A stretch of DNA of 64,000 nucleotides from Nostoc spongiaeforme FACHB-130 (GTDB lineage Bacteria; Cyanobacteriota; Cyanobacteriia; Cyanobacteriales; Nostocaceae): positions 1 to 64,000 of the forward strand of contig NZ_JACJTB010000020.1 in the NCBI RefSeq assembly GCF_014698475.1. Direction: 5' to 3'. The notes below the pieces were generated by a model. The model had not been told where the DNA came from. It searched no databases and worked only from the letters and a program-made list of their open reading frames with translations. Both the position numbers and the translations under genes were made by a program. Shown here piece after piece: positions 1 to 36,522 of this stretch (positions are counted from its first letter, which is position 1; each line of letters starts with the position of its first letter).

Positions 1-149
1 TACTCAACCATCTTCCTCTTCGTCTTCCGCGTTGGAGTACTTTTCCTCCTACTCCTGTTGACGATTTCTTTTGCTTCAATTCCTCCTAATTGTAAAAAAC
101 CTACACCTGTCAGGGGGTTGGGGGTGGGGTTCCGACTGTATTACAAGCA

Positions 150-205
150 AGTAAGAACCGCTATAGTAATCGCACTTCTCAAAACTAGCAAAAGGCGATC
201 GCGCT
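150..205. repeat. Small dispersed repeat (R2-type, contains HIP1 GCGATCGC) upstream of TA pair 1; similar copies at 1063-1097, 2005-2045, 2703-2735
   Basis: Direct comparison: the four copies share the pattern CGCACT(T/C)(T/C)CA(A/T)CAA...AAAGCGATCGCG, and each lies 40-60 bp upstream or downstream of a TA gene pair. Confidence 0.6.
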
Positions 206-206
206 G

Positions 207-611
207 GTGGGTTGTGTGATTCCTTTATTGCTCATACCCAAATTGCTAGAATGCAGATACTTTTTATCATCCGCGATCGCTATGACTCGTCAAGAAATCG
301 AAGAGCAACTTCTGGGCTTATCGCTTGCTGACAAAGCAGATATTATCCAAAGTCTGACCAAAAACCTTAGCACCAGTGGAAGGGGAATTACTAAAACTCC
401 TGGTGTGTGTGGTGGTGAAGCTTGTATTGCGGGAACTCGAATTGCTATTTGGCTTTTAGTGGAAGCACAGCAACTTGGTATTAATGAAGCTCAATTATTG
501 CAGGACTATCCTCACATTACCGCAGCAGATTTAGTCAATGCTTGGGCTTATGCTGATGCTTATCCCGAAGAAATTACTGCCGCAATTCGTGCTAATAATG
601 AGGCAGCCTAA
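207..611 (+). CDS. DUF433-family protein, a putative antitoxin-like partner; true start probably the internal Met near 283 (MTRQEIEEQ)
   Basis: The translated ORF has the DUF433 signature region (GVCGGEACIAGTRIAIWLL...). It lies 3 bp upstream of a DUF5615/PIN-like gene, a pairing widely seen in TA-like operons. Confidence 0.6.
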   Translation: MGCVIPLLLIPKLLECRYFLSSAIAMTRQEIEEQLLGLSLADKADIIQSLTKNLSTSGRGITKTPGVCGGEACIAGTRIAIWLLVEAQQLGINEAQLLQDYPHITAADLVNAWAYADAYPEEITAAIRANNEAA

Positions 612-614
612 TCG

Positions 615-956
615 ATGGCACGTTTGTACACAGATGAACAATTTCCTCGGATAGTCAGCGAATTGCTGCGGACAATGGGACATGATGTTTTAACTGTACA
701 GGAAGCTGGTAACGATAATTTAGGTATTCCTGATGAGGAAGTATTAGCTTTTGCAATTAGAGATAATCGCGCAGTCATAACCCTCAATCGTCAAGATTTT
801 GTCCGCTTGCATCGTGCTAATTCTGAGCATTTTGGTATTATTGTTTGTACGAATGATACTGACAGAAATCGAATGGCAATTCGTATTAATGAAGCTTTGG
901 TATCTGAGGAATCTTTGGCAGGTAAGTTGATTCGGGTTGTACGTCCGGTAATTTAG
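615..956 (+). CDS. DUF5615-family (PIN-like) protein, the putative toxin partner of the DUF433 gene
   Basis: 113 aa, tightly coupled to the upstream DUF433 gene, with conserved acidic residues typical of the PIN-like DUF5615 family. Confidence 0.55.
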   Translation: MARLYTDEQFPRIVSELLRTMGHDVLTVQEAGNDNLGIPDEEVLAFAIRDNRAVITLNRQDFVRLHRANSEHFGIIVCTNDTDRNRMAIRINEALVSEESLAGKLIRVVRPVI

Positions 957-989
957 ACTATAACTATAAGTCGCCATCTCCAAAAACCA

Positions 990-1100
990 AAAAGCGTAGC
1001 CGTAAGGCTTGTCGTCAGACATCGCATTCTTCAAAACCAAAGTGGGATAACTTCGTTAAGCTACGCGATCGCACTTCTCAAAACTACCAAAATGCGATCG
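990..1100. repeat. Palindromic dispersed element (R1, about 70 bp, termini GCGTAGC...GCTACGC) followed by an R2 copy; R1 recurs at 2738-2822 and in degenerate form at 2845-2878
   Basis: Sequence comparison: GCGTAGCCGTAAGGCTTGTCGTCAGACATCGCA is identical at 995-1027 and 2738-2770. The copies end with inverted termini and contain an internal TGTCgtcaGACA palindrome. Confidence 0.65.
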
Positions 1101-1110
1101 CATATGGCAT

Positions 1111-1362
1111 TTAGCTTGCTACCTTGTTCAAAAAACTGTTGAAGCGATCGCTATCCATCAAGCCGTTTTCCGATAGTATGCGGCGCACTGCAACTAAATG
1201 CAATGTTCTGACATCCGCTTGTTGCTCGTAATCAGGCAGGACTATTAGTGTACCAGATGATGGATGCTGGTAAATCTTTTGAGAGCCAAAGGTCTGCATA
1301 GTTACAAACCCTGTCTCTAAGAGCAATTTCTCTAATTCTGTGAATTTAATTTCTCTAACCAT
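1111..1362 (-). CDS. hicA: HicA-like (YcfA family) mRNA interferase toxin
   Basis: 83 aa with the motif pattern FTELEKLLLETGF...GSQKIYQHPSSG...TLIVLP typical of HicA/YcfA toxins. It overlaps the upstream gene by 8 bp. Confidence 0.55.
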   Translation of the reverse strand: MVREIKFTELEKLLLETGFVTMQTFGSQKIYQHPSSGTLIVLPDYEQQADVRTLHLVAVRRILSENGLMDSDRFNSFLNKVAS

Positions 1363-1864
1363 GATGACGAATCACTCCTTGTAACTGGCTGAGAACATCA
1401 TTTTTAAATTTAGCAAATATTTTGATCGCCTGTATATTTAATACGTTGTCTTTAGATAAACGCACAGTTACACTATCACCAACATTCGCTAAATCGAATC
1501 CCTCAATGCTTTCAAAATATGCTTGTATATATAACCAATAAGCTTGGCTATTTTTTGCATCATATACAATTAAAATACATGGCATTGGTTCAACCAACCA
1601 TAATTCTAAATCCGAGCGGGTGATAGTAAAAGTAATGGTTTTTTGGTCTGCAAGTATAGAGAGGGAATCTGTAGCTTTTAACTGTACATATATCTGACCA
1701 TTTTCAATCTCACCTCCAGTATTATAAGTAAAAATCACTAGATCGTAGCCATAATCATACTCAATACGCTCTACAGAATACCCGCATAGCAAGATATATC
1801 TTTCGACATAGTTGACACTTAAATCTGCTATTATATGTTCTCTTGGTCGCTTTTTTCTGGGCAT
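1355..1864 (-). CDS. DUF4365 domain protein, co-transcribed upstream partner of the HicA-like gene (non-canonical antitoxin position)
   Basis: 169 aa whose translation resembles the DUF4365 family; translationally coupled to hicA-like through an ATGA overlap. Confidence 0.45.
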   Translation of the reverse strand: MPRKKRPREHIIADLSVNYVERYILLCGYSVERIEYDYGYDLVIFTYNTGGEIENGQIYVQLKATDSLSILADQKTITFTITRSDLELWLVEPMPCILIVYDAKNSQAYWLYIQAYFESIEGFDLANVGDSVTVRLSKDNVLNIQAIKIFAKFKNDVLSQLQGVIRHHG

Positions 1865-2091
1865 TGAACGGGCTTTTTAGTTTAAAATTATCAAAATTAT
1901 ATTATGGCGTTTCTTACTCTAGTGAAATACAGAGAAGAATAATTAACCGCAGATAAACGCAGATGGACGCAGATAAATTTGTACTTCAGTAGACTAGGAA
2001 AGGTAACGCACTCCCATCAACCCTAATAAAAGCGATCGCGGTGGGACTTTAGATATACTCAAACTAGAATCAATTAGCTGATAATATTTGA

Positions 2092-2304
2092 ATGATGACA
2101 AATCGTGAAGAATTAATTCAAGAACTAGAACAAGCCCCTGATGATATAGTTCAATCGGTACTAGATTTTTTGAATCGGGTAAAAGCCACACGCAAAACTC
2201 ATCCTCTAGCAAAATTTGCAGGGATTTTAAGTGATGTCGAAGCCGAAGAATTAAAACGGGTGATAATCGCAGAATGTCGGCAGGTGGATGTAAATGAGTG
2301 GTGA
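2092..2304 (+). CDS. vapB: VapB-like antitoxin
   Basis: 70-aa acidic protein immediately upstream of the VapC gene and overlapping it by 11 bp. Confidence 0.6.
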   Translation: MMTNREELIQELEQAPDDIVQSVLDFLNRVKATRKTHPLAKFAGILSDVEAEELKRVIIAECRQVDVNEW

Positions 2305-2683
2305 GATTGCCCTTGATACTTCTGTGGCTGTGCGTTTTTTGAATGGGGATGAAGTGGTTGTTTCGCGGGTACTAGCTTTACCAGAAATAGTTTTACCTAC
2401 TGTTGTGGTTGGTGAGTTACTTTTTGGTGCGGAAAATTCAACTCGTCCATTACAAAATTTACCGCGTTATCTGGAATTTATTGAGGCTTGTGTAGTTGTA
2501 CCATTAAGTCGAGAAACAGCCGCAGTTTATGCTCAAACTCGATTGATGTTGAAACGGAAGGGACGACCAATTCCGATGAATGATGTTTGGATTGCGGCAC
2601 AGTGTTTGGAACAGGGTTGGGTTTTAGTGACAGATGATACAGATTTCGATTATGTTGATGGTTTGATGTTAGAGCGTTGGTAA
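2294..2683 (+). CDS. vapC: VapC PIN-domain ribonuclease toxin
   Basis: 129 aa with PIN signature residues (IALDTSV..., ...VTDDTDFDYV). Classic vapBC arrangement. Confidence 0.8.
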   Translation: MSGEIALDTSVAVRFLNGDEVVVSRVLALPEIVLPTVVVGELLFGAENSTRPLQNLPRYLEFIEACVVVPLSRETAAVYAQTRLMLKRKGRPIPMNDVWIAAQCLEQGWVLVTDDTDFDYVDGLMLERW

Positions 2684-2877
2684 TTTGTAGTATGCAAAGG
2701 CTAAAACGCGATCGCACCTCCCCATAATTTCCACAAATGCGTAGCCGTAAGGCTTGTCGTCAGACATCGCACTTCCCCACAATCACACAGGTGATAACCT
2801 CGTTCAGCCACGCTAACGCACACAAAAAACCCCTATAAACACATAGCCATAAGACTTGTCGTCAGACATTGCCATAG

Positions 2878-3141
2878 TTAAGGAAAATATCTGTAAATAT
2901 CCTTTCTTTGTAATGCTCTAACAAAAACAATTATGCCATCAGAGATTGTTAACCCAATTCTGTAATCCCCTATTCTAATCCGATAATAATCGCCGTCAGC
3001 TTTCAGTTTTTTAACATTATTCACATCTAAAAGACTTTCGGCATTTTCGACTTCTTCAATTACTGTTTGTATTTTTTGTAGCAAGGTTTCATCTCGGATT
3101 TTGCTTAAATCTTTTTCAGAGCTACTTTCTAAACTCAACAT
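2878..3141 (-). CDS. RelE/ParE-family toxin
   Basis: 87 aa with the C-terminal motif DYYRIRIGDYRIGLTI...IVFVRALQRKDIYR characteristic of the RelE/ParE superfamily. It directly abuts an upstream small gene. Confidence 0.75.
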   Translation of the reverse strand: MLSLESSSEKDLSKIRDETLLQKIQTVIEEVENAESLLDVNNVKKLKADGDYYRIRIGDYRIGLTISDGIIVFVRALQRKDIYRYFP

Positions 3142-3351
3142 TCATCCTTTATTTCCTAAAATCTTGAAAATTGCCTCTCGGCTCACTAACTCGGTATTTT
3201 CGCCTTCTTTAATGGCTTTTTCTAGTGCTATATCTTCAATGATTTCTGCTAATAAATCGGAAAATACTTCTTTTTGTTCTTGTATAACTTCGGTTAGTGC
3301 AATTTTAAATATTTGCTTAATTTTATCTTCGTCAAAATTTAGTTCTGTCAT
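3142..3351 (-). CDS. Antitoxin partner of the RelE/ParE toxin
   Basis: 69-aa acidic protein whose stop codon is adjacent to the toxin start codon. Confidence 0.55.
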   Translation of the reverse strand: MTELNFDEDKIKQIFKIALTEVIQEQKEVFSDLLAEIIEDIALEKAIKEGENTELVSREAIFKILGNKG

Positions 3352-3408
3352 CTTATTTCCTTCATCTGTGGATTGATATTAGCAGAGCGAATAATTTATG
3401 CTGTTTCG

Positions 3409-6400
3409 CTATTTATTCGGGCAAATCTGCCGACGCAATTCATCGCGGGTAGCCAGATAACCTTGGAGATACTTGCAACCCTGAGTGAGTAAATCATCTA
3501 AATCCAAACTCCACAATTTGATGGTCTTGTCCGAACTTGCGGAAGCTAAAGTTTTGCCATCTGCACTAAAGGCGACGCTGTTGACATTATCTTGATGCCC
3601 GGTAAGGGAGGTAATTTCTTTGCCTGTACTAACATTCCACAACTTTATAGTGTTGTCAGCACTAGCAGAAGCTAAAGTTTTACCATCTGGGCTAAAAGTG
3701 ACGTTGAAGACCGAACCTTGATGCCCAGTCAGGAAGGCATTCTCTTTACCAGTAGCAATATCCCATAATTTAATGGTGTTTTCCAAACTGGCAGAAGCCA
3801 AGATTTTTCCATTTGGACTAAAAGCGATGCTTTGGATTTTTGATTGATCCTCTTGAAAAGTGAAAATTTCTTTGCCTGTAGTTAGATTCCATAACTTAAT
3901 AGTTTTGTCATCACTTGCGGAAGCTAAGGTTTTGCCATCTGGGCTAAAAGCGACACTGTTGACTGAAAATTGATGGTCTCTGAAAGTGAAAATTTCTTTG
4001 CCTGTAGTTAGATTCCATAACTTAATAGTTTTGTCATCACTTGCGGAAGCTAAGGTTTTGCCATCTGGGCTAAAAGCGACACTGTTGACTGAAGATTGAT
4101 GACCTCTGAAAGTGAAAATTTCTTTGCCTGTGTTCAGATTCCACAACTTAATAGTACTAGTTTTTGTACCATTGCGAATGGTAGCACCATTAATAGTAGT
4201 AGTGATAGTACTAAAATTTGTATTGTCACTTGCAAAAGCTAAAGTTTTGCCATCTGGACTAAAAGCGACGCTGTTGACCCCAGATAAATGCCCACTCAAA
4301 GTAGAAGTTTCTTTGCCTGTGGTCAAATTCCACAATTTTATTTTGTCAAAATAAGCACCTGCGGAAGCCAAGGTTTTGCCATCTGGACTAAAAGCGACGC
4401 TTATAGGCAGAGATTGATGATCATTAAAAGTAGAAGTTTCTTTGCCTGTGGTTAGATTCCACAACTTGATGGTGTTATCAGAACTTGCAGAAGCTAAGGT
4501 TTTGCCATCGGGGCTAAAAGTTGTGCTGAAGACCAAATCTTGATGTCCAGTTAAAGTAGAAATTTCTTTGCCTTTGGATAGATTCCATAACTTGATGGTG
4601 TTATCAGAACTTGCAGAAGCTAAGGTTTTGCCGTCGGGGCTAAAAGCGATGCTGTTGACTCCTGATTTATGCCCAGTCAAGGTTGATTCTTTGCCTGTAC
4701 TCAAATCCCACAAGCGAATGGTACTGTAATCACTTGCGGAAGCTAAAGTTTTGCCATCTGGACTAAAAGCGACACTGTTGAACTCTTCATCACGATGCCC
4801 AGTCAAGGTTGAAATTTGTTTGCTTGTAGTCATATCCCACAACCTGATAGTGTAGTCACGACTTGCAGAAGCTAAGGTTTTGCCATCTGGACTAAAAGCG
4901 ATTTGACGAATCCTAGATTGATGCCCGGTCATGGTTGAAATTTGTTTGCCTGTGGTCAAATTCCACAACCTGATAGTGTAGTCAGCACTTGCGGAAGCTA
5001 AGGTTTTGCCATCTTGAGTAAAAGCGATACTATTGACCCAACTTTGATGCCCAGTCAGGGTTAATATTTTTTTACCTGTGGTCAAATTCCATAACTTTAT
5101 GGTTCTGTCAGCACTTCCAGAAGCCAAGGTTTTGCCATCAGGACTAAAAGCAATGCTGCTGACTCCTGATTGATGCCCAGTCAAGGTTAAAATTTTTTTA
5201 CCTGTGGTCAAATTCCATAATTTAATGGTGTTGTCAGAACTTGCAGAAGCCAAGATTTTGCCGTCATGACTAAAAGCAACTTCAGAGACTATATCTTGAT
5301 GCCCTTGTAACTGATTGCGTTCCCGAATGTTTAACAAAATCTCTTGTAAACTAAATATTGGGCTGTAAGCCGGATAATCAGCTAAAGATGTTTTAGCTTT
5401 AACTAAATTTTTCAACTCCTTCCCAGCCCGCATTATTTCCATTAAATTCTCAATTTGCCCTCCTACACCAAACTGACGCAAAGTTCTAATTCCCGTCTGC
5501 TCCAATCGTGTCGCTGTGAGAGCATTTTGGCGCTGTTTTTCTGTTGCTTGTCGCTGCGTTTCGGCTTTTTGTGCCAAATTTAGGGCTGTTTGGGTTTCTC
5601 GTTGTGCTTGTCGTGATTGTTCAAGAGCAGTTTCTCGTTCTTGTTGAGCTATTTCCTTTTCTCGTAATGCTGCTTCCTTTGCTTTCTTGATTTCATCTAA
5701 ACTTTTTTCCGCTTGTTGACGTTTTTGTTGCGCCTGTCGTTTTTCTTGTTCCGCTTTTTCTGTATCTCCCTGCGCTTTTGTAGCTGCTTTTTTTAGAGAT
5801 TCTTCTCTCTGCTTTAAGGCTTGGACTTCTTGATTTTTTTGCTGGAATTGTCTATCGAGATTTTTTACCTTATCATCCGCTTCTTTTACTCTATCGTCTG
5901 CTGTTTTAGTTATAGTTTCAGCCTTTTGTTGTGCTGTCAACCTTTCATCATTAGCCCAATTAGCAAAAATCAAAGCAGCAACAGACCCAATTATGGAAAT
6001 AACCAGCACAATCAAACCAATACGAGTTCTTTTTTTTGCTTTTTCTTCTTCCTGCAAAGCTTGATTTCGTTTTGCGTCCGCCTCCTCAACCTTCTGATTT
6101 AACTCAGATTCAACACTCGCAGATAAAAAACGATAATCAGCATCACTCAAACTTTTTCCATTAGCCCAGACACGAGCTTTTTCTAAGTCTTCCGACTGTA
6201 ATAAATAAGAAGTATCCTGAAATTGACTTTTTAACCAAGCGTTAAAATTATCAGCATAAGGACGCAATTTATTTAACTCTGTCTCAACCCAACTTAAATT
6301 AAAAATATTCCGATAAACGAGATTATAAATCTTTAAATTTTCCTCTTGCTCCACTACCAATCCAGTCAAACGCAACCTCATTTTTTCTGGGCTACCATCA

Positions 6401-7407
6401 ACAGCAATCTCTCCTTCTTGCAAAATTTGCTGATACAAACCCAACAAACTCCCAGCAAATTTTTCGTCCGTGACAATCCTTTTCCGTATAGTTCTTAAAT
6501 GCTCTGGTTCATCCAAGGATTCCCAGTTATCAATAATTTGCTTTCTGACAACTTTTCCCACCCAATCCAAAGCATTTGGCTCTGGGGTGTAACATTCTGA
6601 ATATACAGATAGTTCTTGTAATAATAAATTACAAAGTTTCTGCGTTAAAAAAGGTTGTCCACCAGTCCAACATAAAACACCTTTCATCACTTCTTGAATA
6701 TTGCTAACTTTTCCCCTCAATCCTTCAGCTAAGGGCGCAATTTCATCTTCCTTAAAACCATTAAGTTGAACTGCTCGACCAATATTAAATGGCGTTCGTT
6801 TTTTATCATCAATCAAATCGCTGGGAGTAGCCACACCTAGCAAAGCAAAGGTCAAACGATTTAAATCTGGATTTAAAGCACGCTTTTCATAACAACTTCT
6901 AATCAGAGCAAAAAAATTATTAGAGTGCCGAAACTTTAAATTTAAACTTAAAATACTATCGATTTCATCAATAAAAATAATAATATTACCCTTGACATTT
7001 GGCAGCATTACCTCTTCCAAAAACGAACCAAATCGCTGCACAGGAGATAATTGAATACGTTTATCCCACCAAATAAATAATTCTTCGGGTGGAGATAAAA
7101 CTTGTAGTTGATTCACCAAGATGTAAGCAATACCTGTATACCATTGTTCAAGGCTGCTTTCCTGACTACCTTCATCAATACCTATTTCGGTTAAATCAAT
7201 CTTGGCACAAGCAAAACCCTCTGTTTGCAATCGTTTCATTGTCCGATTCAGCAAGCTGGTTTTACCCATTTGTCGGGAGTTAAAGACAAAACAAAACTCC
7301 CCCGCTTTCAACCACTGATAAAATTCTGTGTCGGCTTTTCTAAATACGTAACTGGGGGCATTTTCTGGTAAACCACCACCAACTTTGTACTCATAATGTC
7401 CCGTCAT
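3409..7407 (-). CDS. Giant NTPase–WD40 signalling protein: N-terminal AAA-like ATPase domain (pfam14516-like), coiled-coil region, single predicted transmembrane helix, second coiled coil, C-terminal run of about 14 WD40 repeats (two beta-propellers)
   Basis: 1332 aa. The Walker A motif [10 protein letters not shown] lies in an AAA-like N-terminus. A hydrophobic segment [26 protein letters not shown] sits between E/K/Q-rich coiled coils. The C-terminus has many [26 protein letters not shown]40 units. Confidence 0.85.
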
Positions 7408-7452
7408 AATTTATCCACAAAAATAAAAAAAATATTGAGGACTAGATCCCCT

Positions 7453-7485
7453 AGAACCCCGACTTCTTGAAGAAGTCGGGGTTCT
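7453..7485. repeat. Perfect palindrome AGAACCCCGACTTCTTgAAGAAGTCGGGGTTCT in the divergent intergenic region between the two AAA-like genes
   Basis: Read directly: 16-bp arms. The same core (CCCCGACTT..AAGTCGGGG) recurs at 44781-44813. Confidence 0.8.
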
Positions 7486-7638
7486 GAATCCAGTGAGCTT
7501 TTATTAAACAGCCATACCACCTGAGTTAAGCCAAGAGAATATCGAGTACCGATTGACTTATTATCGACTTGTTATTTACTTTACAACAAAAAGCCTTTTC
7601 CTTTAAGCTAAATTACGTAGCTCTTTTCACCATCTGCC

Positions 7639-9039
7639 ATGCTTCGTGCAACACGCTCAGTAGTACTACGTGATAAAAACTGCCAAGATAAGGTTTTAGT
7701 CCGCTTTCACGGGCAATACGGTAGTCAGAAATATTTAGGCCAATATTTAGGAGGAATGGCTCAAAGTACGGTTAGTAAGTTTCTCAATATGCAACCTGTT
7801 GACCGTGAGACATTTATCCAAATTTGTGCAGCTTTGGGTATAGAAGATTGGCGAAGCGTTGGTATCCCCTACAGAAAGCCAGCAGATAAAACAGAAAATA
7901 GCGATTCTGAGGAATTAGAAGAATTAGAGGAGTCAGAGAAACAAGAGGAAATTCCCACCTTACGAACCCCAGTACATATCAGCACTCTAGAATATCCAGA
8001 CGGAGAACAACTAGCCCTAAATTCCAATTTTTACGTCCAGCGTCCCCCTGTAGAACAGCAATGTTTTGAAGAAATTAGCAAACCTGCTGCACTGATTTGT
8101 ATTAAAGCTCCCCAAAAAATGGGGAAATCGTCCCTCCTAGTACAGATTATTCAACAAGCAAAAAATCAAGGTGATGCGACGGTAGTTATCAACTTTGAGC
8201 TAGGGGAAAAAGAATTTTTCAGCGACTTGAGTAAATTTTTACGCTGGGTGTGCGATCGCATCATCCTAGAATTGACTAAAGACAATCTCGAATTAGCCAC
8301 CGAACTGTTTGAAAAATTAGACGAGCATTGGAAATTGGCTCCACGTATTGGTAGTAAAATAGCTGCCAAATATTACTTAGAGCGATATCTACTCCCCAAA
8401 ATCAATCAACCCCTAACCCTAGCACTGGAAGAAGTCGATAGATTATTTGAGTATCCAGGAATTTACAAAGACTTTTTTGGACTATTGCGTTCTCTCCATC
8501 AAGAAGGAAGACAACAAGAAATCTTCAAAAAACTCCGCTTAGTGATAGTACATTCCACGGAAGCCTATGTACCAATGGATATCAACCAATCCCCCTTTAA
8601 CGTAGGTTTACCCATCAAGCTACCAGAATTTGACCCGGAACAAATGCTAGATTTAGCTAAACGTCACCAACTGGAATGGAGTGATACGCAAGTCCAGCAA
8701 TTGAGAGACATGATTGGCGGACATCCTTATTTAGTGCGTCTGGCTTTGTATAAAATAGCTCGTGGTGAGATAACCTTATCTCGGTTTCTGGAAACAGCAT
8801 CCACCCCATCAGGGATTTTCAGTAGTCACTTGCGTCATCTTAGCTTAATTTTGACAGAACAACAGGAATTAGGCGCAGCGATGAAAGAGATTATAAATAC
8901 TAACAAACCAGGAAAATTCAGCGATGCAGTCAGATATAAATTAATAGCTTTGGGTTTAGTAAATCTGTTAAATGACGAAGTGATAATACGTTGCAAGCTA
9001 TATTACCAATATTTTCAGAATTTTTATAAAAATAAATAG
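7639..9039 (+). CDS. AAA-like domain (pfam14516-like) NTPase with an N-terminal HTH-like segment
   Basis: 466 aa. The P-loop APQKMGKSSLLVQ matches AAA-like domain proteins common in cyanobacteria. The N-terminus (QSTVSKFLNMQPVDRETFIQICAALGI) resembles a short XRE-like HTH. It is divergent from the large AAA-WD40 gene. Confidence 0.7.
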   Translation: MLRATRSVVLRDKNCQDKVLVRFHGQYGSQKYLGQYLGGMAQSTVSKFLNMQPVDRETFIQICAALGIEDWRSVGIPYRKPADKTENSDSEELEELEESEKQEEIPTLRTPVHISTLEYPDGEQLALNSNFYVQRPPVEQQCFEEISKPAALICIKAPQKMGKSSLLVQIIQQAKNQGDATVVINFELGEKEFFSDLSKFLRWVCDRIILELTKDNLELATELFEKLDEHWKLAPRIGSKIAAKYYLERYLLPKINQPLTLALEEVDRLFEYPGIYKDFFGLLRSLHQEGRQQEIFKKLRLVIVHSTEAYVPMDINQSPFNVGLPIKLPEFDPEQMLDLAKRHQLEWSDTQVQQLRDMIGGHPYLVRLALYKIARGEITLSRFLETASTPSGIFSSHLRHLSLILTEQQELGAAMKEIINTNKPGKFSDAVRYKLIALGLVNLLNDEVIIRCKLYYQYFQNFYKNK

Positions 9040-9089: not shown

Positions 9090-9599
9090 GTGACATTAAG
9101 GTTGTCGAGTTCAACAGACAATTTCATGTTACACCAAGCATTCAGCAACAAACAAATCAAAAACCTCACAGCAACCGCAGTATTCGCATTTATATCTCTT
9201 TTTACAAGCGTAGTTCGTGCAGAAGACGATCGCTCATATATTTATGAAGTCAAAAACCAGCTCTTAGAGCGAGCAGAGATCGCAGGTTTGGGTGGTTACA
9301 CTTTAACTCACAAACCTAGCATCGATACCCTTCGTGAAGGTCGCTCCCACTATATCAATATAAATCTGCGTGCAGGTATGTCCTATGGAATTGTGGGAGT
9401 GTGTGACAGCGATTGTCAAGATTTAGACATTTCTCTTTATGATCACCGAGGAAACTTGATTGCTTCAGATTTACAAGATGATGACATTCCCGTGATTAGC
9501 CTCAATCCCTCTCGAAGCGGTAGATATCAAATCCAAGTTGATATGGCTAATTGTAATGCCAATACTTGTTACTACGGCATAGGTGTATTTGGTCAATAA
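9090..9599 (+). CDS. Hypothetical secreted protein with a predicted signal peptide
   Basis: 169-aa ORF with a hydrophobic N-terminal segment (LTATAVFAFISLFTSVVRA) and several Cys residues. No family recognised. Confidence 0.4.
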   Translation: MTLRLSSSTDNFMLHQAFSNKQIKNLTATAVFAFISLFTSVVRAEDDRSYIYEVKNQLLERAEIAGLGGYTLTHKPSIDTLREGRSHYININLRAGMSYGIVGVCDSDCQDLDISLYDHRGNLIASDLQDDDIPVISLNPSRSGRYQIQVDMANCNANTCYYGIGVFGQ

Positions 9600-9639
9600 A
9601 CCTAAATTGAAGGAGCGCAGACATTCAAAAACACATATC

Positions 9640-9770
9640 TTGCACCTAGCCCCAACGAATGGAATTCGCGGCTATAAAAACGAAGTCCGCCTACGCGGAC
9701 TAAATTAAAATCAAGGGTTTTGAGCCTGCCTCCGCAGGCTTTGTTCGTGTAGCCGCGATTTTAATCGTTA
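9640..9770. repeat. Structured small dispersed repeat: outer inverted repeat (CGCGGCTAT...TAGCCGCG) enclosing two GC-rich hairpins (GTCCGCctaGCGGAC, GCCTGCctcCGCAGGC); related copy at 50060-50135
   Basis: Read directly; both copies share CTATA(A/C)AAACGAAG followed by a GC hairpin. Confidence 0.6.
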
Positions 9771-10033
9771 GTGCAAGATGTGTGAAAATTCACAGTTCAA
9801 CTTCAGATTAAATTGGGTAGAAAATAATGCCGTGTGCAACTTTCTCTTAAACCTAACCCCCAACCCCTCACGCCAATTACTACAACTTTGGGAATCAAGG
9901 TGAGTAATATTCAAAGCCTCTCTCCGGTTTGGAGAGGGGTTTCAAGAATAAGTCGCACAGTATCGGATAAAAAATTACACCAAGTTTAAGAAAATCAGAC
10001 CTGAGCAAGTGAAGTGTTAACTTAGATGATTAG

Positions 10034-12142
10034 TTGCCCAACAGGGCGCATAATATGAAAACTTTTCCATCTTGCTTTGGTAAGAGTAAGCAAAATAAAT
10101 TAGTTCGTTTGGGATTGTCAGCATTAACAGCCTTAGCCATCACGGGCGGTATACATTCAGCTAATGCAGCTTCCCTAAAAACCCAAAGTTCAGCAGAAAT
10201 CGCTTCAGCATCAGTCAGCCTCAGTCAAACACAAGCCGTTACTAATCAGCCTTCCTATCAAGCAATGCAGATAGCACCATTGATTCCCATAGTGGTGCTT
10301 GGTGGCGTTGTTATATTTGTGCCGTTGTTTTTTGGCGGACTCGTAGTGATTGGCGAACGGGAAGTTGGCATTGTCGTGAAAAAATTTGCCCTCTCTGGAC
10401 GCGGACTACCACCCGGAAGATTAATTGCCCTCAACGGTGAAGCTGGTTTGCAAGCCGATACCCTTGCACCGGGTTGGCATTGGGGTTACTGGCCTTGGCA
10501 ATATTCGGTTCGTAAAGAATCGGTGGTGGTAGTACCCCAAGGTGAAATCGCTCTGATTGTAGCCGCAGATGGCGCATCCAACCCACCAGAGAGGATTTTG
10601 GGCAAAATTGTCGATTGTGATAATTTCCAAGATGCACGCAAGTTTCTGACCAATGGCGGCGAAAAAGGCCGTCAAATGGGCTTTCTGACTGCTGGGACTT
10701 ACCGCATTAACACCGCACTGTTTCGCGTCATTATGGCGGCGAATGCCAAACACAATGATATGCAGGCCGAACAATTGCGGGTGTATAGTGTGGCATCAGA
10801 TAAAGTCGGCATTGTCACCACTTTGGATGGTTTACCGATTCCGGCTGGTGAAATTGCAGGGCCGATGATTCCTGGACACGATAATTTCCAGAATGGTCAA
10901 AAATTCCTCAATGCTGGTGGACGCAGAGGTTTGCAAGAGCAAATTTTACTGTCTGGTTCTTGGAACCTGAACCCCTGGTTTGTGCAGGTTGAGCAAGTCC
11001 CCATGTCTGAAATCCCGATTGGTTATGTGGGTGTGGTGATTTCTTTCGTTGGTCAATCTCAAGAAGATGTCAGTGGCGCAACTTTCACGCATGGTAACTT
11101 GGTGAATCCTGGACACAAAGGTGTGTGGATAGAACCGTTGTATCCAGGTAAGCATCCCGTCAACTCTCGAATTATGAAAATTGAGTTGGTTCCCACGACT
11201 AACATTGTGTTGAATTGGTCAAGTCGTACCGAACGCCACAGCTATGATGCTCATTTGGCTTCCTTGACAGTACGATCGCGCGATGGTTTTGCCTTTGATT
11301 TAGAAGTCGCCCAAATTATTCACGTCGGCGCTTTGGATGCACCAAAGGTAATTTCCCGTGTGGGTTCTATGCAAAATTTAGTTGACCATGTATTAGAACC
11401 GACCATTGGTAACTATTTCCGCAACTCTGCCCAAGATTACACTGTACTTGATTTTCTCACCGCCCGGAGCGATCGCCAAGCAGAAGCGGCTGAGTATATT
11501 AGAGCAGCATTACGCGCTTATGATGTACAAGCAATTGACACCTTAATCGGTGATATTCAGCCCCCAGCATCCTTGATGCAAACCCAAACAGACCGCAAAA
11601 TTGCTGAAGAACAACGCAAAACCTACGAAGTGCAGCAGGTAGCCCAAACCCAACGCCAACAACTTGTGCGGGAAACAGCATTGGCTGACATTCAACAAGA
11701 AATGGTGAAATCAGAAAAAAGCGTCCAAATTGCGGAACTCAAAGCCCAAGCCCAAATTCAACACGCCACTGGGGAAGCCGAAGGAATCAAATTACGCGCC
11801 ATAGCCGAAGCCGAAGGGATTCGCGCCACAGGTAACGCCAAAGCCGAAACCTACCGCGCAGGTGTGGAAGCCTTGGGACAACAAGGTTATACAGCTATGC
11901 AATTGATGCAGATTATAGGCGATCGCAACGTCCGATTGATACCAGAAGTTTTAGTCAGTGGTAACGGTAGTAATAATGGCTTGGTAGATGGTTTACTTTC
12001 AATGATTTTATGGAATCAAACAGCCAAGCAAGGTGAAGTCACACCCACACCTTTACATCCACAACCCATAGTTGTGAATAACCCAGCAGTTTCACCAAAT
12101 AATCACTCGCCCATAGTTGCGGAATTCCCAACGGATAAGTAA
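10034..12142 (+). CDS. SPFH/band-7 (flotillin-like) domain membrane protein
   Basis: 702 aa with an N-terminal signal/TM, a central SPFH-like region, and a C-terminal A/E/Q-rich coiled coil (EAEGIKLRAIAEAEGIRATGNAKAETYRAGVEA) typical of flotillin-like proteins. Confidence 0.65.
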   Translation: MPNRAHNMKTFPSCFGKSKQNKLVRLGLSALTALAITGGIHSANAASLKTQSSAEIASASVSLSQTQAVTNQPSYQAMQIAPLIPIVVLGGVVIFVPLFFGGLVVIGEREVGIVVKKFALSGRGLPPGRLIALNGEAGLQADTLAPGWHWGYWPWQYSVRKESVVVVPQGEIALIVAADGASNPPERILGKIVDCDNFQDARKFLTNGGEKGRQMGFLTAGTYRINTALFRVIMAANAKHNDMQAEQLRVYSVASDKVGIVTTLDGLPIPAGEIAGPMIPGHDNFQNGQKFLNAGGRRGLQEQILLSGSWNLNPWFVQVEQVPMSEIPIGYVGVVISFVGQSQEDVSGATFTHGNLVNPGHKGVWIEPLYPGKHPVNSRIMKIELVPTTNIVLNWSSRTERHSYDAHLASLTVRSRDGFAFDLEVAQIIHVGALDAPKVISRVGSMQNLVDHVLEPTIGNYFRNSAQDYTVLDFLTARSDRQAEAAEYIRAALRAYDVQAIDTLIGDIQPPASLMQTQTDRKIAEEQRKTYEVQQVAQTQRQQLVRETALADIQQEMVKSEKSVQIAELKAQAQIQHATGEAEGIKLRAIAEAEGIRATGNAKAETYRAGVEALGQQGYTAMQLMQIIGDRNVRLIPEVLVSGNGSNNGLVDGLLSMILWNQTAKQGEVTPTPLHPQPIVVNNPAVSPNNHSPIVAEFPTDK

Positions 12143-12290
12143 TCTAAATAGTTGAATTAAATCAAACTATTGTGGGGTGGGCATTTTGCCCACCCTACTA
12201 ATAGACTTATTGCACGAATATTGAAAAACTAGAATCTTTAGCCTCACGCAAAGACGCAAAGGCGCAAAGAGTTAAGGAACTGGAGGGTGA

Positions 12291-12479
12291 ATGAAAACTA
12301 TCGAGCAGCTAAAAACACGCATTCGGGAATTGGGACAACTTGCCGCACAGTTCAGTCAGCAAGCTGTTGAGGTAAGTAAAACTAATCGTGAACAAAGCAA
12401 AAATCTGATGAGACAAGCTAGAGAGGCTAGTAAACAGTGTCAGGTATTGATACAAGAGTTAAAAAGACATAAATATTAG
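12291..12479 (+). CDS. Small coiled-coil hypothetical protein
   Basis: 62-aa ORF followed by a GC hairpin (AGGTAGGCAagatGCCCACCT). Confidence 0.3.
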   Translation: MKTIEQLKTRIRELGQLAAQFSQQAVEVSKTNREQSKNLMRQAREASKQCQVLIQELKRHKY

Positions 12480-12559
12480 AATCAGTTAAGCGAATAATTT
12501 TAAGGTAGGCAAGATGCCCACCTTATTAATGAATTGATTACATTTAATTTTGTGAAAGT

Positions 12560-18415: not shown

Positions 18416-19093
18416 CTATATGTTTTCTAGATTTAGTAACCATTGGTGAAAATGCTGGCATTGTTGGCGGATTGTATCTAGTCCAATCTCAATAGCCAGC
18501 AACGAACCATGCAGTACTTTGTCGTATTCTTGACAACACTTGAGAATTCTTTTTGAGGGAGCGGTTAACGGATGATCGTTAATGTGTTCTGGTGAAATAA
18601 ATTGATTGCGATCGCCTTGTAAAATACTAACTACACTAGCATCAAACCACTCAGCAAATACTTGTGGCTGGCTGTACAGCAGTGCCTCAAATTCATGAAC
18701 TAACAAATTAGGGATGAAATTTGTGTGACCGATATCCTGACCCATCTTTTGTTCTAAATATTCAACTTTTTGGAATGGGTCACTAGTATTTGGCAAAGAA
18801 TCCCTTCCGGGAAAATCATTCGGTAAGCGGTACAAATCAAACATTGTGGTCACGAAAGCTGTTTTATCTTCACGGCACTTACGGTCTAATTGTGGCTTAA
18901 TTTTGGCGTAACTTACCACACCTCCTTTGCCTATAGAACTTGTTCTGACCAAAATCGGGTTCAGGAAGATGTCTTTTTCTTGAAAATACTCGTAGAGTAC
19001 TTCTTTCACGAACGTTTCCTCAGTTTGACCTTCAACGAAAACATGGACTCGAATCATCGTGAAGGTCTCCCACCCAGGAGGTTCTTCTTCCAC
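18416..19093 (-). CDS. DUF4276-like small protein with a Toprim-like N-terminal motif (VHVFVEGQTEE); putative nuclease partner of the adjacent ATPase
   Basis: 225 aa. The N-terminal V.VFVEGQTEE motif resembles the conserved-glutamate Toprim/OLD-type motif. It overlaps the upstream ATPase gene by 40 bp. The C-terminal ~35 aa are encoded by a segment duplicated upstream of ackA. Confidence 0.6.
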   Translation of the reverse strand: MEEEPPGWETFTMIRVHVFVEGQTEETFVKEVLYEYFQEKDIFLNPILVRTSSIGKGGVVSYAKIKPQLDRKCREDKTAFVTTMFDLYRLPNDFPGRDSLPNTSDPFQKVEYLEQKMGQDIGHTNFIPNLLVHEFEALLYSQPQVFAEWFDASVVSILQGDRNQFISPEHINDHPLTAPSKRILKCCQEYDKVLHGSLLAIEIGLDTIRQQCQHFHQWLLNLENI

Positions 19094-20160
19094 AATTCGC
19101 CTAAACTATATTCTTCTAGCCATTCCTCTAACTCCTCCTCATCCAACCTGCGTAGTAATGATTTTCCCTGCAAGCGGTCAACAACAATTACATCTGCAAC
19201 ATCAAATTCGTTGAGTAATTCCACAGACTGGGTAGAAACAATCACTTGCTTAGGGACAGTTTTTATTAAGGATGCCAAAATCTTGATGGCATAAGGATGG
19301 AGACCTAATTCCGGCTCATCAACTAAAATTGTTTCTGGTTGAAGTTCTTCCGGCTGCAAAAAAACCGTTGCTAAACAGATAAAACGCAACGTTCCATCAG
19401 AAAGGAAATGTGCTTTGAAGGGAATATCCTGTCCTTTCTCGAACCATTCCAGTTCAATAGATTCCTCGTTTTGTGGCGAAGGACGCAGGAGAAAGTCACC
19501 AAAGAACGGCGCAACAAGCCTGATGGTTTTAACGATTTTCTGATAAGATTTCTGATAATTCTCACGCAACAGATACAAAAAAGCTGCCAGATTACGCGCA
19601 TCAGGACGCAAGTAAACATTGTCATTGATACCATGCGGCTGTTTTACATAAGCACTATCACTGGTGTCATGAAAATGATAAACTCGCCACTGCCGCATCG
19701 TAGGTAAAACGTACTTATCAATTTGAGTCCCTGTACCTCTAGAGGCCTTTGTCTCGAAATGACCTTTACCTATTTCACGCTTACCACTCCTGTTCCACCA
19801 GGAAGACTCAGCAGCGAACATTAGGCGATTATCCTGAGTTGGTTCTAAAGTAGCGAAGTAGCCGTTATTGCCAAAATATAATTGAAATTCTAGTTGTTCT
19901 GTAGTTTTACGACCAAAGTACAATAAAGCATCAGGGCCACCTTGACGGCTAACAAAAACCTGTAGGTTCTGTTCTAGCAGCTGCTGAACCATACGGAAGA
20001 AGCCGATAAAATTGGATTTTCCCGCCCCATTAGCCCCAATTAAAATATTCACCCTGGAGAGTTCAAGGTCACACTCAGCGATAGACTTGAAGCCTTTCAA
20101 AACTATTCTCGACAGTTGTTTGTAACTGCGCGCCTCTGTCATGAACAGTCTCCCAGTCAA
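19054..20160 (-). CDS. ABC-type (SMC/OLD-like, AAA_21/AAA_15-class) ATPase
   Basis: 368 aa with Walker A GANGAGKSN, an ABC signature-like LSDGTLRF, Walker B ILVDEPELGLHP, and a possible D-loop. Confidence 0.8.
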   Translation of the reverse strand: MTGRLFMTEARSYKQLSRIVLKGFKSIAECDLELSRVNILIGANGAGKSNFIGFFRMVQQLLEQNLQVFVSRQGGPDALLYFGRKTTEQLEFQLYFGNNGYFATLEPTQDNRLMFAAESSWWNRSGKREIGKGHFETKASRGTGTQIDKYVLPTMRQWRVYHFHDTSDSAYVKQPHGINDNVYLRPDARNLAAFLYLLRENYQKSYQKIVKTIRLVAPFFGDFLLRPSPQNEESIELEWFEKGQDIPFKAHFLSDGTLRFICLATVFLQPEELQPETILVDEPELGLHPYAIKILASLIKTVPKQVIVSTQSVELLNEFDVADVIVVDRLQGKSLLRRLDEEELEEWLEEYSLGELWKKNLLGGRPSR

Positions 20161-35280: not shown

Positions 35281-36522
35281 ATGTTTACTTTAAATCGTTG
35301 GCAATCTAAAACTGCTGCAATTATGGCTTTGACCATCACTGCTGGCGCTGTCGCACCTTTTATCACTGCCACACCTTCTTTAGCTCAAACTACTTTTACA
35401 GATGTTTCTTCTAATTATTGGGCAGCACAATTTATTCAAGAATTGTCTCAACGGGGTGTAATTGCTGGTTTTCCTGATGGTAGTTTTCGCCCAGAAGAGG
35501 CAGTCACCCGCGCTCAATTTGCTGCAATGGTCAATAAGGCTTTTGCAAAAGCACCACAACGGCAAGCAATCAACTTTGTGGATGTACCCAGCAATTTCTG
35601 GGCATCTAGCGCCATTCAGCAAGCTTATACCATCGGTTTTCTGTCTGGATATCCTGGAAATCGTTTTGAGCCGAACCAAGCGATTCCTCGTCAACAGGTG
35701 TTAGTTTCCCTGGCTAATGGTTTGCAATATAACCCTAGTGGTAATGTGGAAAGCACTCTGCAATACTTCAACGATGCTTCAGGAATTGCTAGTTATGCCC
35801 GTAGTCCGATTGCGGCAGCGACAGAACAGCAAATTGTGGTGAACTATCCTAATGTTAAATTCCTCAGCCCGAATGCCACTGCAACACGCGCCCAGGTAGC
35901 TGCTTTTATTTACCAAGCTTTAGTAAGTTCTAATCAAGCTTCGGCAATTAACTCACCTTATATAGTTGCGTCCCAACCCACAACACCAACACCCGTCTCA
36001 ATTACAATTCCCCAAGGAACTGTTATCCCCGTGAAGTATGACCAAGCGAAAAAAATCTTGGTAACTAAAGATGAGACTGCACCTTTAACACTGACTGTTG
36101 ACCAAAACGTAGTTACCCAAGATGGTACAGTGGTCATTCCGGCTGGTAGTCAAGTTGTTGGTCAACTCAAACCAGCCAAAGGCGGTTCGCAATTCGTAGG
36201 ACAGAAACTAGTATTAACCACAGGTCAGGAGTATCAAATTGCTGCTACTTCTGATGTGATTACCAAAACCGAAACCGTCAACAAAGGTACTAGTACAAGA
36301 GCCATTATTACCAATACAGTATTAGGTGCTGGGGCTGCGGCTGCGGTATCTGCGGTGACAGGCGATCGCGCGATCGCTACAGAAGAAGTTCTCGGTGGTG
36401 CGGCTATCGGTGGTTTAATTGGCTTGTTCTTCGGTCGCAACAGCGTTGATTTAATCGCCATTAACCCCAATACCGATTTAGAAATGACCGTTAATCAAAA
36501 TCTGTTGGTGTCAGTGAGATAG
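35281..36522 (+). CDS. S-layer homology (SLH) domain protein with a C-terminal glycine-zipper-like domain
   Basis: 413 aa with a signal peptide and three SLH-like repeats (FTDVSSNYWAAQFIQELSQRGVIAGFPDGSFRPEEAVTRAQFAAMV...). Its C-terminal domain is paralogous to that of the 33138 gene. Confidence 0.8.
   Translation: MFTLNRWQSKTAAIMALTITAGAVAPFITATPSLAQTTFTDVSSNYWAAQFIQELSQRGVIAGFPDGSFRPEEAVTRAQFAAMVNKAFAKAPQRQAINFVDVPSNFWASSAIQQAYTIGFLSGYPGNRFEPNQAIPRQQVLVSLANGLQYNPSGNVESTLQYFNDASGIASYARSPIAAATEQQIVVNYPNVKFLSPNATATRAQVAAFIYQALVSSNQASAINSPYIVASQPTTPTPVSITIPQGTVIPVKYDQAKKILVTKDETAPLTLTVDQNVVTQDGTVVIPAGSQVVGQLKPAKGGSQFVGQKLVLTTGQEYQIAATSDVITKTETVNKGTSTRAIITNTVLGAGAAAAVSAVTGDRAIATEEVLGGAAIGGLIGLFFGRNSVDLIAINPNTDLEMTVNQNLLVSVR

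Follow-up and report, generated by a model that had tools for sequence, protein, structure and literature searches.

The first 3.4 kb of a 64,000-nt stretch of DNA from Nostoc spongiaeforme FACHB-130 (contig NZ_JACJTB010000020.1, hereafter the window) carry an island of four two-gene modules of toxin-antitoxin (TA) type, which were identified by Pfam within positions 150-3400. The spacers of this island hold arrays of short units built on the cyanobacterial palindrome HIP1 (highly iterated palindrome 1, GCGATCGC), and some of the HIP1 sites are split by very small structured inserts. We consider it somewhat probable that such polar mini-repeat arrays of the Nostocales, which are of HIP1 and SDR5 type (SDR5 is a small dispersed repeat of Nostocaceae), act as recombination-prone junctions between TA cassettes. 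The original prediction for this DNA had proposed a recurring repeat scaffold in the spacers between TA pairs and had likened it to a cassette array. Both points were borne out, as the array is polar and its scaffold coincides with cassette boundaries and with reshuffling between genomes.

The window has 41% G+C and 58 HIP1 sites, and the closest genome found was that of Nostoc sp. FACHB-110. Loci used in the cross-genome comparison are given L-numbers (L002, L007, L032 etc.). Four TA pairs had been predicted within 3.4 kb. All four modules were recovered by Pfam, three of them with a clear type II toxin-antitoxin match; the DUF4365/HicA-like pair was only TA-like, its HicA match being weak and under the cut-off. 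The genes of the island and its repeats, for which the predicted names R1 and R2 are kept, are arranged as follows.

169-202, plus strand: R2 copy 1, ATCGC + ACTTCTCAAAACTAGCAAAAG + GCGATCGC; the DUF433/DUF5615 cassette begins right after the 3' HIP1
282-611, plus strand: DUF433 protein, antitoxin-like partner (PF04255, E=4e-21)
615-956, plus strand: DUF5615 protein, PIN-like/Mut7-C-like toxin partner (PF18480, E=7e-25)
994-1025, plus strand: R1 core copy 1, GCG + TAGCCGTAAGGCTTGTCGTCAGAC (997-1020) + ATCGC; predicted three-way junction fold
1021-1048, plus strand: degenerate unit within R1 (ATCGC ATTCTTCAAAACCAAAGTG GGAT), read from the sequence and fitting the pattern of the unit family
1044-1066, minus strand: 15-nt hairpin insert TAGCTTAACGAAGTT in a degenerate HIP1, the supposed 3' terminus of R1 (fold z=-2.75)
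1065-1101, plus strand: R2 copy 2, HIP1 + ACTTCTCAAAACTACCAAAAT + HIP1; the hicA-like cassette end lies 4-10 nt further on
1111-1362, minus strand: HicA-like small protein, weak match (PF07927, E=0.0035, below the Pfam cut-off)
1355-1864, minus strand: DUF4365 protein, overlapping the HicA-like gene by 8 nt (PF14280, E=5e-22)
2005-2039, plus strand: R2 copy 3, degenerate, AACGC + ACTCCCATCAACCCTAATAAAA + GCGATCGC; the vapBC cassette begins right after HIP1
2092-2304, plus strand: VapB-like antitoxin, DUF2281/VAPB_antitox (Pfam, weak)
2294-2683, plus strand: PIN-domain toxin VapC (PF01850, E=5e-17)
2708-2741, plus strand: R2 copy 4, HIP1 + ACCTCCCCATAATTTCCACAAAT + GCG of the next, split HIP1 (repeat comparison)
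2739-2770, plus strand: R1 core copy 2, split HIP1 with the insert at 2742-2765 (exact 33-mer match)
2791-2819, minus strand: degenerate 15-nt insert (AACCTCGTTCAGCCA) with degenerate HIP1 halves, the supposed 3' end of R1 copy 2 (sequence reading)
2841-2872, plus strand: decayed 24-nt insert, copy 3 (ACA + TAGCCATAAGACTTGTCGTCAGAC + ATTGC), 9 nt from the relE stop codon (repeat comparison)
2878-3141, minus strand: ParE/RelE-family toxin (PF05016, E=1.5e-7)
3142-3351, minus strand: RelB-like antitoxin (PF25734, E=1.4e-17)

An R2 unit consists of ATCGC, a spacer of 18-24 nt and a GCG-HIP1. The spacer is rich in A and C and almost devoid of G, the composition over R2-type spacers being 42% A, 33% C, 23% T and 2% G. 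The unit had the consensus ACTTcCCCAACATCACAAAT, and that of the R2 form was ACTTCTCAAAACTACCAAAAt. Four copies of R2 had been predicted, and two of them stood as such, with 94% identity between 169-202 and 1068-1101. The other two (2005-2039 and 2708-2741) have only the HIP1 ends, an ACYYC start, an AAAW end and the G-poor composition in common; they are members of one unit family, not copies of one sequence. The hairpin formed between the two HIP1 sites of copy 2 has a 9-bp stem (z=-5.0). Four of the five unit matches of the window fell in the island; the fifth is a solitary HIP1 pair at 28712 without the extended start ATCGCAYYYC, and on the plus strand this start was confined to the island within the window.

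The repeats called R1 are real. The 33-mer GCGTAGCCGTAAGGCTTGTCGTCAGACATCGCA occurs exactly at 994-1026 and 2739-2771 with no further copy in the 64 kb and no match in shuffled sequences, and a third copy at 2837-2873, which is decaying through transitions, is 81% identical. The description of R1 as an element of 70-85 bp did not hold, since other genomes share only the first ~33 nt as a recurrent unit. R1 is two tiny inserts in neighbouring HIP1 sites rather than a single element. The core is a HIP1 split between bases 3 and 4 by a 24-nt two-hairpin insert (GCG, TAGCCGTAAGGCTTGTCGTCAGAC, ATCGC). The 3' part (GATAACTTCGTTAAGCTACGC, 1045-1066) corresponds, in reverse complement, to a 15-nt HIP1 insert in its own right, TAGCTTAACGAAGTT, which was found on its own in other loci and whose reverse complement occupies window positions 1049-1063; in L032 it lies within an intact HIP1 (GCGTAGCTTAACGAAGTTATCGC). 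Because TAGCTTAACGAAGTT is a separate insert, the inverted termini GCGTAGC/GCTACGC that had been assigned to one element are a 5' end that two inserts of opposite orientation have in common. Further HIP1 units make up the interior of R1.

Single-strand folding of the R1 copies, which had been suggested as a check, gave structure for the core and none of the attC-like hairpin sought in the whole repeat. The 40-nt core is predicted to fold into a three-way junction in which the HIP1 halves close two 4-bp hairpins (z=-2.4 as RNA, -3.4 as DNA), while whole R1 copies of 77-88 nt folded no better than shuffles (z -1.6 to -2.0 as RNA). The fold of the 24-nt core was not clearly shared by its 27-nt and 15/21-nt siblings. 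An Rfam scan of positions 1-4000 at E up to 10 returned only two chance matches. R1 was also considered as a protein-coding remnant (minus strand ATG-TCT-GAC-GAC-AAG-CCT-TAC-GGC, MSDDKPYGY), a candidate that was rejected because the copies have only the insert in common and the same 24 nt are read in the opposite direction in a dynamin-like gene.

The arrangement GCG, 24 nt, ATCGC was present in 70 of 80 core matches (at most 1 mismatch to the 32-mer). Sibling inserts of 15, 20, 21, 25 and 27 nt occur in the same loci; each begins with TAG and splits HIP1 at the same point. At L034 926-958, L051 1891-1923 and L032 7594-7626, an insert of 25 nt (TAGCCTCTCGCAGAGAAGAGAAGTT) and longer composites were observed, and these look like insertions nested within the 15-nt insert (GCGATAACTTC[...]GTTAAGC), which fits published nested SDR insertions. 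A variant of the 24-nt insert, with loop CTAA for GTAA, splits, in frame, a HIP1 site in the gene of a ~745-aa protein that combines a dynamin-like GTPase domain with a DnaJ domain at its C-terminus. The protein gains the residues SPKACRQT, and 26 Nostoc genomes keep the insert (L003 5984-6015, L008, L010, L013 etc.).

When the core GCCNTAAGNCTTGTCGTCAGACAT was scanned as an exact pattern against one genome per species in 185,579 species, 64 loci in about 50 genomes were obtained. Every named host belonged to the Nostocales, and one host was an unclassified cyanobacterial metagenome-assembled genome. The core had no match in PLSDB plasmids or IMG/VR viral contigs, and therefore nothing points to plasmid or phage carriage. 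SDR5 is described as inserting precisely between the third and fourth HIP1 nucleotides (Elhai 2015, PMC4390886), and the same position is given by Xu et al. 2018 (PMC5861425). The window insert and SDR5 are alike in this position, in the 21-27 nt size class, in predicted hairpins, in restriction to heterocystous cyanobacteria and in nested, clustered occurrence. The window insert is 24 nt long, and the 21-nt form found here (TAGGCGTAGCCCGTCGTAGAC) matches it only at the termini. The 24-nt insert is most likely of SDR5 type by target position (bases 3/4 of HIP1), size class and lineage (Nostocaceae/heterocystous), a comparison made with the published descriptions. A full-text literature search for the repeat sequences retrieved unrelated papers only. 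The association with TA genes, the polar arrays of G-poor HIP1 units and the HIP1-flush cassette ends find no mention in the secondary sources on SDR5 that were consulted.

Association of the repeats with TA genes extended far beyond the window. Among 74 copies of the core, 26 lay in frame in the dynamin-like/DnaJ gene and 48 were intergenic. The proteins encoded next to the intergenic copies included BrnA, HicB, PhdYefM, PIN, ParE, DUF2442, DUF4160, DUF433, DUF5615 and DUF4365. Dereplicated open reading frames (ORFs) of 60-200 aa within 350 nt of a repeat were compared with controls taken more than 2 kb away or from control loci. At least 20 of the 43 ORFs near repeats matched a TA family, compared with one of the 43 controls (Fisher p=1.5e-6); the families were PIN, HicB, ParE, PhdYefM, BrnA, HicA, DUF433, DUF5615, DUF4365, DUF2442 and DUF4160. 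The original prediction had envisaged a TA-linked scaffold and had named, as the result that would tell against it, generic high-copy dispersed repeats that show neither enrichment beside TA genes nor an attC-like structure; enrichment was found. R2-type units numbered 129 in 297 kb of loci with an intergenic insert and none in 200 kb of loci with the coding insert.

The arrays were strictly polar. Wherever a locus had at least three features, its units and 24/27-nt inserts shared one strand (17 of 17 loci, 139 of 139 features), and a single polarity spanned up to 3.4 kb and cassettes of either orientation. Convergent genes flanked 26 of 43 sites. In 11 of 12 cases, inserts ending in ...GAAGTT (15, 20 and 25 nt), seen at L007, L032, L034, L037, L051 and window 1044-1066, lay on the other strand from the G-poor units and the 24/27-nt inserts.

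Homology between genomes began and stopped at the repeats. Each TA pair is a self-contained cassette of two genes that has an upstream region of its own and a short tail, and the cassette ends mostly abut HIP1. The vapBC cassette begins right after ...ATCGC in four genomes; the HIP1 ahead of it is intact in the window and L037 and filled by the 24-nt insert in L032 and L039, with no target duplication. The DUF433 cassette begins right after HIP1 in two genomes (window and L032) with different preceding units, and the end of the hicA-like cassette abuts HIP1 in five of eight genomes. Direct 24-nt inserts bracket vapBC in L037 and phd/parE in L042. The cassettes also changed place: in L032, relBE is found at the opposite end of the island, and the hicA-like/DUF4365 cassette (93-95% nt identity) was found in an island between atpC and a WD40 gene in some genomes and in an island adjacent to dxr in others. 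The decayed third insert copy accompanies relBE with the same decayed flanks in the window, L007 and L002. Directly downstream of dxr, a second, conserved hot spot for TA islands was observed in many Nostoc genomes (L044, L061, L034, L051, L062, L036, L056, L020 and L004), with varying cassettes (BrnA, HicB, Phd, hicA-like/DUF4365) and the same repeat arrays, always co-oriented with dxr.

In the comparison with the closest genome, the identity over positions 121-3400 of the window was contrasted with that over 3409-9039 and 9102-12483 (L065). The island (121 to about 3400) was 98.8% identical to that of FACHB-110, whereas the Band_7 region was 92% identical, the AAA_35-WD40 gene (3409-7407) and the AAA_35 gene (7639-9039) were 65-68% identical, and the left flank (1-120) was not homologous. 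Divergence was unequal among the cassettes of the island, with 1 substitution in one and 18 in another. The identity of the island against its lower flanks and this uneven divergence indicate that the island was recently exchanged and is mosaic. The sole indel within it consists of four extra units (117 nt) in FACHB-110, which directly abut the insert of the 2739-2770 copy on its 3' side. The exchanged island adjoins hypervariable STAND-like genes.

From the unit anatomy, the distribution, the TA link, the polarity, the boundaries and the reshuffling, we infer that TA cassettes may be gained, lost and shuffled through HIP1 arrays. The basic scaffold unit is HIP1 plus an 18-24 nt G-poor spacer, and structured inserts have entered some HIP1 sites between bases 3 and 4 without target duplication, as is published for SDR5. 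Crossovers could take place at the dense arrays, either by homologous recombination that HIP1 stimulates or by recombination at HIP1 of a site-specific or illegitimate kind, and DNA uptake would probably precede them. The SDR-type inserts would be parasites of HIP1 that hitch-hike with the cassettes, and they may persist in the arrays because insertion between convergent 3' ends is harmless. This putative role in recombination is consistent with published reports on HIP1. HIP1 has been reported to take part in site-specific recombination in PCC 7002 and to promote excision, and a link with illegitimate recombination has been drawn (Akiyama 1998; Robinson 1997; both cited in PMC4390886). HIP1 has further been described as stimulating transformation and homologous recombination in the way of Chi (bioRxiv 10.1101/2024.09.10.611283).

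Several points weigh against HIP1 arrays as recombination junctions. In no case was a recombination event observed, and flush HIP1 ends could reflect fast-evolving arrays that overwrite everything outside a selected cassette. At ~480-510 of L039, vapC is cut after ~10 codons and joined to the hicA-like cassette end at a TGTGGC microhomology, so that this junction is a microhomology deletion inside vapC and not an event at HIP1. The DUF4365/vapB junction has only a degenerate unit and the relB/WD40 junction has none. As the probe was taken from a TA island, the TA association may partly be hitch-hiking by descent, and grouping orthologous loci by eye left ~14 independent contexts, roughly 9-11 of them TA-adjacent. 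The copies of the 24-nt insert differ by 0-2 nt, a variation too low to count covariation in the predicted three-way junction. A 2026 preprint gives the length of SDR5 as 21 nt, not 24.

The principal alternative is a passive build-up of selfish or neutral repeats in dispensable intergenic DNA, of which TA islands would be an example, with the cassettes moving through ordinary recombination within neighbouring genes or with the help of other mobile elements, and not through the repeats. We regard it as possible, on the doubtful side. It would account for the placement of most sites between convergent 3' ends, where insertions are harmless, for the free variation of unit number between near-identical islands and for the transitional decay of the third R1 copy, and the rearrangement in L039 through microhomology instead of HIP1 agrees with it. 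The 24-nt insert also survives in frame within the conserved dynamin-like gene, and because it persists there, presence of the insert alone implies no cassette function. Passive build-up is, however, harder to reconcile with cassette ends that are flush with HIP1 in several genomes despite differing neighbour units. The absence of units from ~50 other intergenic regions of the window (the isolated HIP1 pair at 28712 aside) and from 200 kb of control loci also argues against it, and one polarity across cassettes of either orientation would be unexpected for independent neutral insertion into a palindromic target.

We think it unlikely, though worth stating, that the islands arise by an integron-like capture and exchange of cassettes with no integrase adjacent. 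HIP1-bounded TA cassettes, in many cases between direct copies of the 24-nt insert, would be cut out and inserted anew at HIP1 sites by a HIP1-specific activity encoded in trans or by HIP1-stimulated recombination after natural DNA uptake, giving rise to polar TA islands at fixed hot spots downstream of atpC and dxr.

The structured repeats might instead work at the RNA level in TA operons, as bidirectional terminators, insulators or 3'-end stabilisers where operons converge, with R2 ahead of two operons as an operator or 5' untranslated region element. The frequency of convergent sites (26/43), the stability of the three-way junction and of the 9-bp HIP1 stem of R2 (z=-5.0), and inserts that often lie 9-60 nt past a stop codon would suit such a role, which we nevertheless judge improbable. 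No U-tract or terminator-like site was found at any repeat, and the scan for promoters and terminators at repeats stayed at chance level (15 promoter-like sites against 10 expected, 3 terminator-like against 2.7). The orientation of the inserts is inconsistent, sense after DUF5615 and vapC and antisense after relE and parE, and Rfam gave no match. The unit ahead of a cassette is swapped in other genomes for a different unit or for the 24-nt insert, as at DUF433 and vapBC, whereas the upstream sequence of the cassette is kept. Because of this swapping, and because two of the four R2 copies lie between convergent 3' ends, the proposal that R2 is a shared promoter or operator was not upheld.

It is very improbable that R1 is a MITE (a miniature transposable element with inverted repeats) or other non-autonomous transposon, 70-85 bp long with terminal inverted repeats, mobilised by an insertion sequence and shuffling the cassettes. 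Copy 1 does have 7-nt inverted ends, GCGTAGC/GCTACGC, that are able to pair. But both ends are inserts found independently in other genomes and not real terminal repeats, copy 2 no longer pairs, no target-site duplication is visible, and the interior is just another HIP1 unit. R1 is also smaller than known cyanobacterial MITEs, which measure about 120 to 435 bp (PMC3184786). The MITE reading was accordingly abandoned.

The last alternative, for which the probability is close to nil, is that the cassettes are delimited by attC sites of a sedentary chromosomal integron, or of a remnant cluster of attC sites lacking an integrase (CALIN), with R1 as attC and IntI encoded elsewhere. TA cassettes are typical of chromosomal integrons, and attC sites are 57-141 nt long. 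The island resembles such arrays in having polar repeats, independent of gene orientation, between small promoter-bearing TA cassettes whose content varies among strains, and some cassettes are flanked by direct insert copies. Unlike attC, the repeats have no R''/L''/L'/R' architecture: no RYYYAAC...GTTRRRY pair was present in 1-3500 (50-150 nt spacing, both strands). A long imperfect hairpin is lacking, only ~33 nt are conserved, which is too short, and whole intergenic spacers fold as separate local hairpins. The 24-nt insert is missing from two of the four junctions (DUF4365/vapB and relB/WD40) although orientation is uniform, and this insert is also found within a protein-coding gene and beside housekeeping genes. 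A search for an intI-like tyrosine recombinase, which had been proposed as a check, gave no Phage_integrase match among 20 window ORFs of 225-702 aa (all ORFs of 250-580 aa included; the genome beyond was not searched), and none is on record in the 10 kb upstream in FACHB-110, which encode PhoD, malic enzyme, a PAS/GAF kinase, atpD and atpC. Integron machinery is not involved, and the attC reading is effectively refuted.

All units described here are built on HIP1, and all inserts target it. HIP1 is usually dispersed at ~1 per kb, mostly within genes, whereas here it forms tandem intergenic arrays with a period of 28-36 nt. The REP (repetitive extragenic palindromic) and BIME (bacterial interspersed mosaic element) sequences of Enterobacteria and Pseudomonas, associated with RAYT transposases, are short extragenic palindromes led by GTAG, clustered and often between convergent genes. 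The 24-nt insert, with the sequence GC-GTAG-CC... and a mostly convergent placement (26/43 sites), may resemble them, and it differs in that the inserts here target a specific palindrome, HIP1. Two loose precedents link repeats to TA loci. In E. coli, REP sequences occur in the ccdO157 TA region, which is variable (PMC3184786), and the ParE/ParD module of Microcystis aeruginosa PCC 7806 is fenced by two 152-bp direct repeats (PMC7935541). The latter is likewise a cyanobacterial type II TA pair between direct repeats that contain short inverted repeats, but the sequence and size of the repeat are unrelated, only a single locus is concerned and HIP1 plays no part.

HIP1 and SDR5-type inserts are already known as elements, and no paper that connects TA cassettes with HIP1 or SDR repeats came up in our literature search. 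After 30 years of knowledge of HIP1 its function is still not established, and SDR5-type inserts are among the smallest mobile elements proposed. With TA cassettes that end at HIP1, whole-unit changes in 99%-identical islands, the same cassettes in different islands, and filled and empty sites, this locus and its relatives offer a testable setting. If HIP1 arrays are crossover points, HIP1 would have a role in organising the flexible genome, and the way in which Nostocales build up large TA repertoires would be explained. If they are not, the repeats would still be recognised as ordinary lineage-specific HIP1/SDR debris and not as an integron.

Some minor features were also recorded in the window. 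The window holds no tRNA, and a tRNA integration hot spot is thus not favoured. A 10-nt tandem repeat, TAAACGCAGA, is present 3.4 times at 1944-1977, upstream of the DUF4365 gene, and two HIP1 octamers stand head to tail at 36362-36377 (GCGATCGCGCGATCGC). On the minus strand at 18416-20160, a gene for an AAA_21 protein (AbiEii-like ATPase, 368 aa) is paired with one for a DUF4276 protein (225 aa). The pair looks like a defence-type two-gene module, and it is surrounded by housekeeping genes for acetate kinase, transaldolase, pyruvate kinase and GAPDH.

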